Positions 1,137 through 10,560 of a stretch of DNA of 12,345 nucleotides are shown in pieces; within the stretch, counting starts at the first letter, position 1; each line of letters starts with the position of its first letter. Source of the DNA: Candidatus Sigynarchaeum calidifontis (lineage in GTDB: Archaea; Asgardarchaeota; Lokiarchaeia; Sigyniarchaeales; Sigyniarchaeaceae); contig JAUQYZ020000037.1 in NCBI GenBank assembly GCA_030587475.2, forward strand, positions 1-12,345, written 5' to 3'. The translations under genes and the position numbers were made by a program. The notes below the pieces were generated by a model. The model made no database searches. It was not told where the DNA came from and saw only the letters and a list, made by a program, of their open reading frames with translations.

Positions 1137-1682
1137 TCATTTCCGCTCGTAAAAAAACAGTGAATGCTTGCTGCCATCGATCTCGACGCTTTCCTCGTGT
1201 CTTAACGAGAGCACGCTGTCCAGCTGGTCGAGCGGGTACTTGTACGAAAAAATCGTGGCACCATAGCGAGCCGTCAAAAAGACGTGATTGAGAAACCGCT
1301 GAACGTTGGGTAGCGTGAATATGAAAATGAAATCATAGTACCCGAGGTCATGATCGAAAAGATCCCCCTTCCAGACGTATGCATTCTTGAGCTTTTCCCT
1401 CCGGATCGCTTTCTTTGCGATCCTGACCATGGCATCGTTGATCTCGATGCCAAACGACGCGATTCCGAAGGTACGCGCGCAGTACATGACCACCTCGCCG
1501 GTGCCGGCGCCGAGATCGATGAATGTTTGTCCCGATCCCCGCGTCAAGCCGAATCCCATCTCGAGAACAGAAAAACCGGCCCGGATAGCTGCGGCTGGCG
1601 TGGGCGCGTATGGCAATTCGGCCTGCGACACGATATCGTAGTACCGGGCATGGTGACGCCACGCGAAGATGGAGGGGCTCAT
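1137..1682 (-). CDS. Class I SAM-dependent methyltransferase, resembling the aKMT/FAM173 protein-lysine methyltransferase group
   Basis: PYAPTP pre-motif, motif I FIDLGAGTG, post-I GIEIN, GDLF and YDFIFIF. The start codon is uncertain. Confidence 0.88.
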   Translation of the reverse strand: MSPSIFAWRHHARYYDIVSQAELPYAPTPAAAIRAGFSVLEMGFGLTRGSGQTFIDLGAGTGEVVMYCARTFGIASFGIEINDAMVRIAKKAIRREKLKNAYVWKGDLFDHDLGYYDFIFIFTLPNVQRFLNHVFLTARYGATIFSYKYPLDQLDSVLSLRHEESVEIDGSKHSLFFYERK

Positions 1683-2545: not shown

Positions 2546-4621
2546 ATGGCAAAAGAACCCGTCAAGTCAGTAGAATGGAGCACTTTGCGCGATCTCGGAG
2601 CGGAAGAGGTTGAGGTGCATGCCAAACGAATTCTCGATACAATGACGCTGCTGCAAAAGCTCAACCAGCTCACCGGCAACTGGAATCTGCTGCAAGCAGC
2701 GCCCATGCTCGTACGGTATAATTCGAAACCGATCCCGGCCGGAAAAGACGACAAGCTGGGCATTCCAGGCGTGTTGTTCACCGACGGCCCGCGCGGCGTC
2801 GTGATGGGAGCGTCGACTTGCTTTCCCGTGTCCATGGCCCGCGGTGCCACGTGGGACCCTGCATTGGAGGAGCGCGTGGGTCGTGCTATCGCCGTGGAAG
2901 CCCGGGCTCAAGGTGCGAACTTTTTCGCTGGGGTCTGCATCAATCTCTTGCGCCATCCAGGTTGGGGTCGAGCCCAGGAGACATATGGCGAAGATCCTTT
3001 CTTGCTTGGCGTGATGGGCTCCGCACTCGCACGTGGCGTGCAATCACGAGGGGTCATGGCCTGTGCCAAGCACTATGCGTGCAACAGCATGGAGAACATG
3101 CGCTTCAAGGTTAATGTCAAGATCGATGACCGCACGCTCCACGAGGTATATTTACCACACTTCAAGCGCTGCGTGGATGAAGGAATTGCCGCGATCATGA
3201 GTGCCTACAACAAGGTTAACGGGGTGCATTGCGGGCACAACACGATGTTATTACGCGAGATATTGAAAGGGACATGGGGTTTCAAGGGATTCGTGATGAG
3301 TGACTTCCTCTGGGGCATCAGGGACGGCGAGGCCGCGCTCAAGGGCGGGCTGGACATCGAGATGCCGCTACGAATGCACATGAAACCGAAAAAGATGGCA
3401 AAATTCGTCGCCGCGGGCAAGATCGATCTCGCCCTCGTGGATGATGCCGTGCTCCGCATCTTGCGCCAGCAACTTCGCTTCAATACGACGATGGATCCGG
3501 CATCATTTGGCAAGGAAAAGGTCGGATGCCCGGAACATGTTGCACTGGCACGTGAAGTGGCACAAAAATCAATTGTCCTTCTCAAGAATGACAAGCACAC
3601 GCTACCATTTAGCATGGAAGAGATCAAGCAACTCGCGGTGTTCGGAAAGATAGCCAGAATGGCCAATATCGGCGATCACGGATCGAGCCGTGTCCATCCC
3701 CGCCGGGTCGTGACGCCGCTTGATGGCTTGAAAGCCCTCGTGGGCGACCGGATCAGGGTTGTCCATGACGATGGCAAGAGCGTGACAAGGGCATCGCAAA
3801 TCGCCAGCCAGAGCGATGCTTGCGTGGTGCTCGCGGGTTGCACGTGGAAGGATGAAGGCGAATACATTGCATCTTCAGGCGGCGACCGAGCATCGCTCGA
3901 GCTGCATCCCGCGGACGTGGCGATAATCCAGGCAATCATCTCGGCAAATGAAAAATGCGCTCTCGTGCTCGAGGGCGGGAGCGCCTTCATCACCGAGAAT
4001 GTCCGCGACGTCGTGCCCGCCATGCTGATGGCGTGGTACCCCGGCATGGAAGGCGGCGCTGCCATCGCGGACATCGTCTTCGGCAAGGTCAACCCGAGTG
4101 GTAAATTGCCGGTGACCTTCCCTAAATCGACCGACCAGTTACCGTTCTTCGACATGTGGGCAAGGGAGATCGATTACGGCTATTACCACGGGTATCGATT
4201 GCTTGACAAGAAAGGGGCGCATCCAGCTTTTCCCTTCGGCCACGGGGAGAGCTATACCACCTTTCAACTTGCAAATCCACGTCTTGATTCGGATCGCGTG
4301 AGATCAAGCGGGACGATAACCGCGCTCGTCGACGTTCGAAACACGGGCATTCGGGCGGGCGATGAAATCGTTCAGGTATATGTTGGTTACGACGCGCCGG
4401 CACTCGACCGGCCGGTCAAGGAATTAAAGGGGTTCTCGAGGATCCACGTCGAACCGGGCGAGTCGCGAACAGTGTCAATACAAGTCGCTGCGAAGGATCT
4501 CGCGTACTTTGATCCTTCGTTGAAGACGTGGAAGCACGATTCTTGCAAGCATGCTGCATACATCGCAACATCCTCGGACACGAGCGGGATCTCCCCGATC
4601 GAGTTCATTATCGAGCCATGA
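2546..4621 (+). CDS. Glycoside hydrolase family 3 (beta-glucosidase/beta-xylosidase-like) with C-terminal Fn3-like domain, probably cytoplasmic
   Basis: DGPRG, WGRAQETYGEDP, KHY, IMSAYN, nucleophile motif VMSDF, SIVLLKN, WYPGMEGG, NPSGKLPVTF, FPFGHGESYT and EIVQVY...RPVKELKGF. No signal peptide is evident. Confidence 0.97.
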   Translation: MAKEPVKSVEWSTLRDLGAEEVEVHAKRILDTMTLLQKLNQLTGNWNLLQAAPMLVRYNSKPIPAGKDDKLGIPGVLFTDGPRGVVMGASTCFPVSMARGATWDPALEERVGRAIAVEARAQGANFFAGVCINLLRHPGWGRAQETYGEDPFLLGVMGSALARGVQSRGVMACAKHYACNSMENMRFKVNVKIDDRTLHEVYLPHFKRCVDEGIAAIMSAYNKVNGVHCGHNTMLLREILKGTWGFKGFVMSDFLWGIRDGEAALKGGLDIEMPLRMHMKPKKMAKFVAAGKIDLALVDDAVLRILRQQLRFNTTMDPASFGKEKVGCPEHVALAREVAQKSIVLLKNDKHTLPFSMEEIKQLAVFGKIARMANIGDHGSSRVHPRRVVTPLDGLKALVGDRIRVVHDDGKSVTRASQIASQSDACVVLAGCTWKDEGEYIASSGGDRASLELHPADVAIIQAIISANEKCALVLEGGSAFITENVRDVVPAMLMAWYPGMEGGAAIADIVFGKVNPSGKLPVTFPKSTDQLPFFDMWAREIDYGYYHGYRLLDKKGAHPAFPFGHGESYTTFQLANPRLDSDRVRSSGTITALVDVRNTGIRAGDEIVQVYVGYDAPALDRPVKELKGFSRIHVEPGESRTVSIQVAAKDLAYFDPSLKTWKHDSCKHAAYIATSSDTSGISPIEFIIEP

Positions 4622-7553: not shown

Positions 7554-8093
7554 CTATTTGGTCGGTGCGTGGGCGCTTTTGTGCGCGGCAGCCCATCGCG
7601 AGACGAAACATCTCGTGAAGTCGCGGATCTCCGTGATGACGGCGAGGTAATAGGGATCGGGCATCATGTACGGGTCCTCGATGTCGAGACTGGAGGGATG
7701 GAGCTCGTTCGCGCATAGCTCCTTGAGCGTGAACGTCTTGGACCTGATGGTAGGGATTTCGGGGAACTGGGATGCCATGAAGTCGCGCATGTATGTTTCC
7801 ATGACGATGATCAAGTCGAACTGGCTAGCCATGGCGGCCGTGACAGTGCGCGACACGTGACCGGAGATGTCATCGCCCCCCAGCTGCTTGACGAACGCGA
7901 TGCTCTGTGGCTGCGCGCCCGTGAACGCGTGGTTCATGCCCGCCGACTCGATGCGCAGTTGCTTGAACAGCTCTGGGGGGAACATGTCGCGAGCAAATTT
8001 TCGCGCCAAGCCCTCGGCGGCGGGCGAGCGGCACGTGTTGCCAAGGCACACGAAGAGGATGCTCTTGACACCTTTCAAGTCGATGGTGGCCAT
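7554..8093 (-). CDS. Low-molecular-weight phosphatase (LMW-PTP / arginine phosphatase family)
   Basis: P-loop ILFVCLGNTCRSPAAE (C-x5-R), ESAG, FDLIIVME and general-acid motif DIEDPY. ATG at 8093 is preferred over the GTG at 8120. Confidence 0.93.
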   Translation of the reverse strand: MATIDLKGVKSILFVCLGNTCRSPAAEGLARKFARDMFPPELFKQLRIESAGMNHAFTGAQPQSIAFVKQLGGDDISGHVSRTVTAAMASQFDLIIVMETYMRDFMASQFPEIPTIRSKTFTLKELCANELHPSSLDIEDPYMMPDPYYLAVITEIRDFTRCFVSRWAAAHKSAHAPTK

Positions 8094-8189
8094 GACTGGT
8101 GACCTTGCGCGCGCCTGCACGAATGATCCGAAATTACGGGGAAGTGCAGAGGGCGGGGTTCGAACCCGCGAACTCCTTCGAGAAGGGAT

Positions 8190-8219
8190 TTCAAATCGAT
8201 TCGTAATTGAAATCCGGAT
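8190..8219 (-). other. tRNA intron 3 (30 nt, anticodon arm, position 37/38 to 41/42 ambiguous)
   Basis: Removing 30 nt restores the anticodon stem AGGGA/TCCCT. A flanking ATCC repeat makes the boundary ambiguous. The best 4-bp central helix (UUAA/UUGA) is at 38/39; the canonical 37/38 register has two U-U mismatches. Confidence 0.75.
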
Positions 8220-8235
8220 CTTAAGTCCCTCGCCT

Positions 8236-8268
8236 ATAGCCGCTTGTTGACCCTATGTGATCAAGGAG
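8236..8268 (-). other. tRNA intron 2 (33 nt, D-loop, best position 21/22)
   Basis: Central helix GGCC/GGCU with 3-nt bulges AA^C and AU^A, and internal hairpin UUGAUC/GGUCAA. Removal restores the archaeal Leu-type D-loop GGCCAAAGGCG. Confidence 0.8.
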
Positions 8269-8278
8269 TTGGCCTGGC

Positions 8279-8310
8279 TTTGCCGACGATGCAATATGCA
8301 ATGCTCGTCC
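8279..8310 (-). other. tRNA intron 1 (32 nt, D-arm, best position 14/15)
   Basis: Relaxed BHB: central helix (A)GCC/GGC(A), bulge AA^G, intron helix GACGA/UCGUC, second cut AA^G. A flanking AAG repeat makes positions 12/13 to 15/16 sequence-equivalent. Confidence 0.8.
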
Positions 8311-8350
8311 TTGGCTACCTCTGCTGAACATTTTTTTTATCGGGTTAACT

Positions 8351-8422
8351 TCGATTTCCTTGGAGATCGACAGCATCGATAGCGGGACAACCTCCCGATG
8401 CTTACATCCCTAGAAGCATCGG
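8351..8422. repeat. Cluster of inverted repeats between the tRNA and the PL10 gene
   Basis: TCGATTTC/GAGATCGA (8351-8370, one G-T), perfect 9-bp CCGATGCTT/AAGCATCGG (8395-8422), and CGGGA/TCCCG (8383-8397). Confidence 0.6.
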
Positions 8423-8493: not shown

Positions 8494-10560
8494 TCACGTG
8501 ATCGCATCCAGGTAATCGATGATGCGCATCGCGTTGTAGTAAAACATCTCGTCGTCGATCTTTCCCTCCCCGTCGAGCCAGAAACCGCTCGAATGGATGG
8601 TGGAGTTGGCATGCAACGCGCCCGACAAGAGCGATGATATCGAAGGGGGCGTGTCCCGCCACGCGATGTATTGTGAGATATTCTTGCCGCAAACATTTAT
8701 CAAGTAATCATATCGACTTAGCGTGCCGTTGATGCCATAGCTGCCGACCCACGAGTACCCGTAATCTCGCGAGGGCACGTAATCGTAATAATACACGATA
8801 CCGTTCCCCTGGTTGTTGCGGTTCCCGACGATCAAGTGGTTGGAACCAAGCTCGTAAAGGCGTGCCCAAATGAAATCGCCGGGGGCACTGGTGATGTTCC
8901 AGGCATCTTCGATCGTCGTGTTCGCGTCCGTCAACCACGCGACAGCCGCGGGGATCGGGTCGAGGTAGGTCTCGTTGCCCGTCCGCAAGTAGAGATCCAC
9001 GAGCATCTCGATGGCATGCGCCGTGTCGATGCTGCACATGGCGGGAGGCTCGAACCGCCTCGCCCACGCGGGCTGGTCATTCTTGTACTGCTGCGCCCAC
9101 GCGCCCGATTGCTTGGCGTTCGAACCGCAGCCGTGGCCTTGTACACGGATGAGGAATTGCCCCGCGCGTTCCGCTGCTTGCATGTACCGGGGATCCCCGA
9201 AAATGTCGTGTGCCTTGAACATGAGGTTCACGAGGTCTCGCATGCAATCGTCGTTCAACGTGACGTAGGACTGGTACTCGTCGGGGCCGTAGTTGGACCG
9301 CTGCGGCCAGCCCCCGCCGGGCTTTTCGAGCTGGAAGATGTAGTCGAGCCCGCGAAGTGCCGCGTTCCGGTACATGACATTTCCCGTGACGCTGTACATG
9401 TCGAGCAGGAATGCCAGCGCGGATTGCATGGTGTTGTCGTCGAACACGGCCGAGTGCATGGGATTCCTCGGGTGGGGTTGGTAGCCCTTGCCATCCGGGT
9501 ACAATCGCCCATCGTAGTAAAACCCGCCATTGCCCGCGTCTTGCACGGCCATCAATGCACGCGCCGCGGCCGCGGCGACGTTCAAGTACACGGGGTTCGG
9601 GTCGAGCTTGTACATCGACAAGTAGACGCCCGCGATCAAGGGCGTGCCACCCTGGATCGAGAACTCGCCGGGATGGAGGGGGCAACCGGGGCCTCGATCG
9701 CTGTAAAACTCGGACCCGTCGAGCAGTGCCTCGAGCGGGAACCCGCCTTGACTTTGTGTCGTCGTCATTTGCCACAACGCGCGCTCGAGCGTCTCGAGCA
9801 GGGAGCGATTTTCACCTGCCAGTGCATCGAGCGCCGCATTCGCGTGCCCACCCGCTTGGACAGCAGCGAGGTCATAGGCAGGAGCCGAAAAGCCGTGAAA
9901 GCCAGTAAAACATTTCTGGGGTAAGTTCAACACGTTCACGCCATACGTGATGATGGTTCCTGCGATCGCGAGCAGCATCGCCATGGCTTGGAGCTTTCCG
10001 ATGCTTTGTCGCGTGATGGCCGGGAAATGCCACTTCCGAATTTCCTGAACCGGGGAACGGATCTCCTTTCCCTTGCCACGCGAGATACCACGCAGCAGCA
10101 AATCAACATGGCAAGCGATCACGATGCAGAGGATGGCTAAGCTGGCAATGGACAAGAAGACGGCAGCGTTCATGAACTCGGCACCAATGTCTTGCAGCAA
10201 CGATCCAAAGCTCGTGCTGGTGAGGGCGAAAAGCACGATACCGACGAGGGTCAACGCCGAGTAAATGATCACGGGTACCAGCCCTTGTACGATCCACGCG
10301 TGCTGACCTTGTCGAGGCGCGCCTTGTTTCCGGGAAACGTCCTTGATCAACGCGAATGCATGGACATAGAGCCCGCTGCAGAGGGCGCCGAGCAGGCAGC
10401 AAAGGCCCGCGAATGCTTGCTGGTACGAGACGAACACGAGCATGGCACCGCCTAAAAAAACCGCGACCACGACCAGCAAGCCAACAAGGAGGCTTGCCAT
10501 GGTGATATCGAGCACTGCCAGGGTGGCTAGCGCGTGCTTTACCTTGGAAGGAGAATTCAT
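8494..10560 (-). CDS. Membrane-anchored pectate lyase, polysaccharide lyase family 10 (PelA-like)
   Basis: PL10-type motifs AVFDDNT, GGGWPQ, YVTLNDD, GAWAQQY, PAWARRFEPPA (catalytic Arg), AVAWL, WARLYE and GYSW. About 5 hydrophobic TM segments lie in the first ~210 aa. Confidence 0.85.
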   Translation of the reverse strand: MNSPSKVKHALATLAVLDITMASLLVGLLVVVAVFLGGAMLVFVSYQQAFAGLCCLLGALCSGLYVHAFALIKDVSRKQGAPRQGQHAWIVQGLVPVIIYSALTLVGIVLFALTSTSFGSLLQDIGAEFMNAAVFLSIASLAILCIVIACHVDLLLRGISRGKGKEIRSPVQEIRKWHFPAITRQSIGKLQAMAMLLAIAGTIITYGVNVLNLPQKCFTGFHGFSAPAYDLAAVQAGGHANAALDALAGENRSLLETLERALWQMTTTQSQGGFPLEALLDGSEFYSDRGPGCPLHPGEFSIQGGTPLIAGVYLSMYKLDPNPVYLNVAAAAARALMAVQDAGNGGFYYDGRLYPDGKGYQPHPRNPMHSAVFDDNTMQSALAFLLDMYSVTGNVMYRNAALRGLDYIFQLEKPGGGWPQRSNYGPDEYQSYVTLNDDCMRDLVNLMFKAHDIFGDPRYMQAAERAGQFLIRVQGHGCGSNAKQSGAWAQQYKNDQPAWARRFEPPAMCSIDTAHAIEMLVDLYLRTGNETYLDPIPAAVAWLTDANTTIEDAWNITSAPGDFIWARLYELGSNHLIVGNRNNQGNGIVYYYDYVPSRDYGYSWVGSYGINGTLSRYDYLINVCGKNISQYIAWRDTPPSISSLLSGALHANSTIHSSGFWLDGEGKIDDEMFYYNAMRIIDYLDAIT

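Follow-up and report, generated by a model that had tools for sequence, protein, structure and literature searches.

The minus strand of the window (the whole 12,345-nt stretch of DNA analyzed) carries at 8145..8324 a 180-nt segment that raises two questions: whether it is a tRNA-Leu(UAA) gene broken up by three introns, and what would keep an intron in such a gene. A first-pass annotation made from the sequence alone had proposed this reading and suspected an Asgard host. The suspicion about the host was borne out, since the host genome (G000) encodes an EndA beta subunit 88% identical to a protein of a Promethearchaeota MAG and the nitroreductase of the window clustered at 90% with Ca. Sigynarchaeum springense, in agreement with a lokiarchaeial origin.

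The tRNA-Leu(UAA) gene and its orthologues

The pre-tRNA-Leu(UAA) gene was found to consist of four exons, all on the minus strand, and does not encode the CCA end. Exon 1 (8311..8324; 14 nt, tRNA positions 1-14) is the same in the orthologue from another genome of the genus (G001), and is followed by a 32-nt intron between positions 14 and 15 (intron 1, 8279..8310). A 10-nt micro-exon (exon 2, 8269..8278; positions 15-21, including G18 and G19) separates it from a 33-nt intron at 21/22 (intron 2, 8236..8268). Exon 3 (8220..8235; 16 nt, positions 22-37) has the anticodon TAA at 8223-8221, the 30-nt intron 3 (8190..8219) sits at the canonical 37/38 site, and exon 4 (8145..8189; 45 nt, positions 38-73) supplies the variable arm, the T arm, the 3' strand of the acceptor stem and A73. 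These coordinates and lengths, as well as the 85-nt product, are exactly those of the first-pass annotation, and the introns occupy 95 of the 180 nt, i.e. over half of the gene as it had claimed.

After removal of the three inserts, the spliced 85-mer was called a clean tRNA-Leu(taa) by ARAGORN, with a 7-bp acceptor stem, 5-bp anticodon and T stems, a class II variable arm and A73; it is thus a canonical cloverleaf, as defines a multi-intron tRNA. Since the four exons are colinear within 180 nt, the gene is neither a split nor a permuted tRNA. The expectation that scanners would overlook such a gene proved right, because the unspliced locus was missed by Rfam and by ARAGORN without introns and was miscalled as Arg(acg) by ARAGORN with the -i option. 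The call on the spliced form is weak evidence in itself: when we deleted three random segments of the same lengths, 187 out of 3000 trials (6%) also gave a tRNA-Leu call with low-scoring genes reported. We therefore rejected the ARAGORN score as proof of the gene and took the proof from relatives.

The G001 orthologue adjoins the same gene for a low-molecular-weight (LMW) phosphotyrosine phosphatase/ArsC-like protein, which lies downstream of the tRNA in the window (7554..8093, minus strand) and served as a synteny marker for orthology within the family; tblastn matches to it were found beside the tRNA in L006, L007 and L022. Between G000 and G001 none of the 85 exon positions differed, as compared to 9 of the 63 positions of introns 2 and 3 (Fisher p=3e-4). 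The site of intron 1 was exactly empty in G001, G002 and G003, that of intron 3 in G002, and that of intron 2 in, for example, G042 and G046. The G003 gene has introns at 21/22 and 37/38, while that of G002 has them at 21/22 and in the T loop, with no insert at 37/38. A gene on a JGI contig (L333) shares all three intron positions and the 10-nt exon with the window; its intron 1 is unrelated to ours. Another unrelated insert occupies 14/15 in G044, indicating that this labile site was filled repeatedly or emptied repeatedly. These unrelated inserts weakened an interpretation of intron 1 as a recent gain, gain and loss being separable only with a tree. The lokiarchaeial Leu(UAA) precursors in our sample ranged from 118 to 235 nt. 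By inspection, four of them (L051-L054, from G053, G008, G033 and G010; 205-235 nt) hold four or five inserts, apparently with two tandem introns at 21/22 and no exon between them, an arrangement that would force a splicing order.

We also considered whether the locus could be a degenerate pseudogene or an assembly artefact, with the working Leu(UAA) gene elsewhere. The MAG is 89% complete, intron 3 forms just two of its four central pairs and the ARAGORN call is easily produced by chance deletions, all of which would fit such a reading. A second assembly (GCA_030587545.2), however, carries the same 180 nt without a difference, and the invariance of the exons next to diverged introns is hard to reconcile with decay. 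No further Leu(UAA) gene was found in the 89%-complete genome by ARAGORN, Rfam or an anticodon-arm pattern, with the tRNA arrays on contigs C82 and C212 included in the search. The anticodon-arm pattern matched once per genome, and in the host the match was this gene; the TTA codon is in use in the genes of the window (16 occurrences). A pseudogene or artefact is consequently very improbable. The gene is almost certainly real and spliced, and is most likely functional. The two arrays (L214 and L215) hold about 11 and about 19 tRNA genes without introns, one of them called as Thr(AGT), and similar arrays occur in G001.

Splice motifs and splicing enzymes

Each insert was analyzed for the geometry of a bulge-helix-bulge (BHB) motif. 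Intron 1 forms a relaxed HBh' motif with three of four pairs in the central helix (H), a 5-bp h' helix and 3-nt bulges, and does so in the 14/15 register only (shuffle rate 0.0004). The registers 12/13, 13/14 and 15/16, which would give the same product, were rejected because the motif forms at 14/15 alone. Intron 2 has a full central helix at 21/22 (4/4; shuffle rate 0.012), in which the micro-exon supplies the H strand through G18-C20a; the flanking helix is not directly stacked on it and the exon helix is offset by one base. Intron 3 uses the anticodon stem as h (a 6-bp helix) and has an h', and its central helix is the weakest of all, with two Watson-Crick and two U.U pairs (H 2/4), in G001 likewise. 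The motif geometry of each therefore marks all three introns as relaxed substrates, intron 3 being a weak case. This agrees with the earlier description of two D-arm introns with relaxed motifs, at 14/15 and 21/22, split by a 10-nt exon.

The same annotation had predicted a heteromeric splicing endonuclease of broad specificity, and the genome matched the prediction: G000 encodes two EndA paralogues together with RtcB. The alpha paralogue aligned best to the catalytic subunits of Sulfolobus and Aeropyrum (A. pernix) across the inserted L1/CSL loop; its catalytic Tyr and His are present, and the Lys lies on a second, overlapping contig end. The alpha gene is split between C178:1-561 (L001) and the end of C189 (L003), which overlap by about 90 low-quality bases. 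The beta paralogue is devoid of the catalytic His and Lys. Judged by these sequences, G000 encodes an (alpha-beta)2 EndA with an L1/CSL loop, i.e. the broad-specificity type. Asgard enzymes of this (alpha-beta)2 type, L1 loop included, have already been published (PMC5829648).

The intron-2 tag and a box C/D sRNA

Intron 2 contains a short tag, ATAGGGTCA (8248..8256, minus strand), which forms 9 contiguous Watson-Crick pairs with the D' guide of a box C/D sRNA encoded on another contig of the host (C22, 24275-24203, minus strand). A search for antisense partners identified this sRNA, which has boxes C, D', C' and D, a terminal stem and two guides of 10-12 nt. It had no match in Rfam, and its homologues matched generic C/D models below the gathering score. 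Genes for fibrillarin, Nop5 and an L7Ae-family protein are encoded in G000. We detected homologues of the sRNA in at least 14 Asgard families, in which the D guide is invariant while the D' guide varies and changes with the tag. Our patterns did not find the sRNA in G003, G011, G004 and four of five genomes of families f6 and f7, and gave a candidate in G045; such a miss does not imply absence. Both the tag and a guide matching it were found in G021 and G031. In family f12, L312 (G300) carries an sRNA that is nearly identical to the f10 one and probably entered the bin by contamination.

The tag core, GGGYYR, was present at an insert in 95 of 107 Asgard Leu(UAA) genes with an intact 23-39 region, as compared to 7.4 expected from shuffled introns; since the same data set served to define the motif and the sampled genomes are related and not independent, the p-values for the tag are optimistic. 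A tag-bearing insert at 21/22 was seen in 57 of the 61 Lokiarchaeia Leu(UAA) genes sampled and in several other families, while in other lineages the tag resides at 37/38, and two more families have it in an insert of the variable arm or the acceptor stem. It also follows position 37 in 28 of 30 Asgard elongator tRNA-Met (Met-e) genes. Among 30 curated tRNA spans of G000, the tag occurred only in Leu(UAA), Leu(CAA) and Met-e, where it lies in an intron each time, and all three have the intended D-guide site. The core was absent from three genes of family f19 and two of f6. Two f19 genes (L131 and L133) are intron-free Leu(UAA) genes with no tag, yet an f19 genome (G265) has a homologue of the sRNA, making these genes a natural control for tag dependence. 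The tag of the window lies partly inside a hairpin of intron 2 itself. Two other roles for the tag, that of a guide acting in cis on the anticodon arm and that of a D-loop mimic, were rejected for poor fit to the variants in other families. Boxes C and D are both missing from the 33-nt intron 2, which hence is not a guide-encoding intron of the pre-tRNA-Trp type.

The D guide of the same sRNA matches a second site on the precursor (8217..8227, minus strand), made up of positions 30-37 and the first three bases of intron 3, ATC, which copy exon positions 38-40. In each of the 40 Leu(UAA) genes interrupted at 37/38, G37 is followed by ATC, of which the search pattern had forced only AT, and it is this continuation that provides the D-guide site in the precursor. 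The D guide forms 11 pairs there, in which U34 makes a G.U pair with the guide base at +5. On Leu(CAA) the guide is fully complementary to positions 30-40 and has C34 at +5; on Met-e it has two mismatches, and C34 is Watson-Crick paired. The D' guide forms 10 Watson-Crick pairs with the tag of Met-e, as against the 9 of the window, and the tag G (8253 in the window) is Watson-Crick paired in the +5 register. At least nine contiguous pairs in the +5 register were thus found for both guides on the window precursor (11 and 9), and the nucleotide that would be methylated is Watson-Crick paired in Leu(CAA) and Met-e (C34 in both) and in the tag (its G), though not in Leu(UAA) (U34). All sRNA homologues found keep G at +5 of the D guide.

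To assess co-variation, we compared the duplexes of D' guides with precursors across 10 families, one genome per family. Cognate duplexes had a mean of -16.2 kcal/mol versus -12.3 kcal/mol for non-cognate ones (permutation p ~5e-6), and the cognate precursor ranked first for 6 of the 10 D' guides. Within the window gene the pairing was specific to intron 2 (p 0.002), with no pairing for introns 1 and 3 (p 0.88 and 0.76). In the largest lokiarchaeial family (f4), pairing is complete for the Met-e tag, as against only ~6 bp and a bulge for the Leu(UAA) tag. The variable-arm intron tag of L060-L062 (family f18) pairs with the guide only via a one- or two-base bulge. The D' guide forms 8 bp with the acceptor stem of tRNA-Cys as well. 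Our scan for D' targets in G000 covered the tRNA spans, rRNA being unassembled in this MAG, and the guide may also have an rRNA target. A separate guide with perfect complementarity to UAA was also sought and rejected, there being no enrichment over controls in 41 genomes, and a candidate guide on contig C49 was discarded because it places A35, rather than U34, at +5.

A proposed role for intron 2 and its place among known systems

We propose that the three introns would be cut by the (alpha-beta)2 EndA at their relaxed BHB motifs and the ends joined by RtcB. Introns 1 and 3 would be passengers, gained and lost among relatives, while intron 2 would owe its retention to a docking tag at which a box C/D sRNP binds in trans. 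The sRNA would grip the unspliced precursor twice, at sites ~20 nt apart, with the D' guide on the tag and the D guide on positions 30-40, and the latter pairing would place N34 under fibrillarin. The second grip would compensate for the imperfect D-guide duplex (G.U at 34 in Leu(UAA), two mismatches in Met-e), and one sRNA could therefore serve Leu(CAA), Leu(UAA) and Met. Modification of N34 would have to precede the removal of intron 2 by EndA. Such a docking role would account for the retention of the 21/22 intron throughout the class amid the turnover of the others. We consider this explanation probable as a whole, from the functional gene to the docking of the sRNP. Docking of the sRNA on the intron-2 tag is very probable, and is a well-supported candidate variant of intron-dependent tRNA modification; as for Um34 on Leu(UAA), we lean only slightly toward its actual formation. 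We modestly favor an Asgard-wide extension, in which, through one sRNA and a portable intron tag, 2'-O-methylation at the wobble position of Leu(UAA), Leu(CAA) and Met-e would depend on introns.

The doubt about Um34 stems from a report that a Watson-Crick pair at +5 is essential for methylation (PMC6009581), which counts against U34 as a substrate. The gene could then be real and the sRNA could dock while U34 stays unmethylated, the pairing acting to chaperone folding, set the order of splicing or methylate the intron G, with Nm34 confined to Leu(CAA) and Met-e. The same report allows that mismatched but conserved guides may act otherwise, and the G that the D guide keeps at +5 is in line with this. 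We nevertheless regard it as unlikely, because the tag is as strictly kept in Leu(UAA) throughout the phylum as it is in Met-e, the start of intron 3 preserves the D-guide site, and C/D guides for position 34 of Leu(UAA) have been predicted in Pyrococcus (PMC7994747).

A more thoroughly neutral account would hold that all introns are neutral, that the tag is a relic of D-loop duplication or a folding element, and that only selection on Met-e or on an rRNA target lies behind its match to the sRNA. The resemblance of the tag to the D-loop GGUCAA, its position within a hairpin in the window, the short Leu pairing in f4 and the room that a MAG without assembled rRNA leaves for an rRNA target would all be compatible with it. 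On the other hand, the tag does not follow the D-loop sequence, it resides in introns at differing positions with varying hairpin partners, and the Leu(UAA) tag changes with the guide family by family. We therefore judge this account improbable, and the docking reading remains the one that we prefer.

The fragmentation of the gene adds a further case to a trait already published for Asgard archaea. Introns are described in 92-95% of the tRNA genes of three complete Asgard genomes, with several introns in over half (Valentin-Alvarado 2024, PMC11291895), and a 90-genome census gives 2.2 inserts per gene in its focal families, up to five, and notes that D-arm introns are systematically missed by tRNAscan-SE (Goswami et al., bioRxiv 10.64898/2026.10.13.758758). 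The published genes resemble ours in their short BHB-type introns, scanner-missed D-arm introns, repeated gain and loss and (alpha-beta)2 EndA. The suggestion of the first-pass annotation that heavily fragmented tRNAs might here be extended to a new lineage thus does not stand, because both the multi-intron Asgard tRNAs and the EndA type had been published. Differences are that this Asgard work focuses on Atabeyarchaeia and Jordiarchaeia, with Lokiarchaeia unnamed in the main text of the preprint and, in the parts consulted, no function assigned to any intron, and that G000 is only moderately interrupted by comparison with the genomes described there, many host tRNAs being intron-free. Thermoproteales (Sugahara 2007/2008; Tocchini-Valentini 2009, as cited in PMC11408192) are alike in having up to three introns, non-canonical sites, relaxed motifs and an EndA with the L1/CSL loop. 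They differ in having transposing intron families, whereas G000 holds no copies of the window introns that could have acted as donors (best blastn E=0.075).

The sRNA resembles the Pyrococcus sR47/sR49 type and haloarchaeal sR-tMet (PMC7994747, PMC2584109), which are trans-acting C/D guides with N34 in the +5 register. On pre-tRNA-Met, the position-34 guide known there extends past the exon to cover the start of the intron (PMC7994747, PMC2584109), and the position-34 guides described there have single tRNA targets, whereas the C22 sRNA fits three tRNAs. The second guide of tRNA-targeting sRNAs has been said usually to have no target, from scans of mature tRNAs (PMC6009581), while here it pairs with a free-standing intron tag. 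The box C/D RNA in the pre-tRNA-Trp intron (sR50) makes 2'-O-methylation at position 34 depend on a tRNA intron, as is proposed here, but that intron is the guide itself and intron 2 would be a target. In the literature searched we found no case of a second guide paired with a tag standing free in an intron, though Clouet-d'Orval 2001, Joardar 2011 and Tocchini-Valentini 2009 may mention one. The complementarity between intron tag and D' guide is new relative to that literature, and the conserved, putatively guide-docking tag in intron 2 had been overlooked by the first-pass annotation.

The persistence of introns in archaeal tRNA genes has no settled explanation, and the latest Asgard census offers spliceability alone. 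Our analysis gives one of three introns a candidate positive function and predicts which introns are kept. If the proposal is correct, the tag would select its one intron while the neighbors turn over, and would impose an order of modification before splicing. The 'orphan' second guides of archaeal tRNA-targeting sRNAs might then have targets in introns, a class left out of the published C/D target scans, which used mature tRNAs. Asgard archaea are the lineage closest to eukaryotes, in which SNORD97 guides Cm34 of elongator Met (PMC6601510).

Several other features of the host genome and the window were observed. A tRNA-Trp(CCA) gene of ~213 nt on contig C70 (4524-4736), whose D arm holds inserts and whose anticodon intron is of the C/D type with boxes that are degenerate, was missed or miscalled by ARAGORN and Rfam. 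Upstream of the tRNA-Leu(UAA) gene, the window has a 96-nt hairpin-rich spacer (8325-8420, minus strand; z ~ -1.6, not significant), in which a promoter was not identified, and a gene (8494-10560, minus strand) for a protein of 688 aa that is anchored in the membrane and has a pectate lyase (PL10-like) domain. Elsewhere the window encodes a small class I methyltransferase (1137-1682, minus strand), whose best Pfam match was DOT1 (E=4e-8), and a GH3 beta-glucosidase (2546-4621, plus strand).
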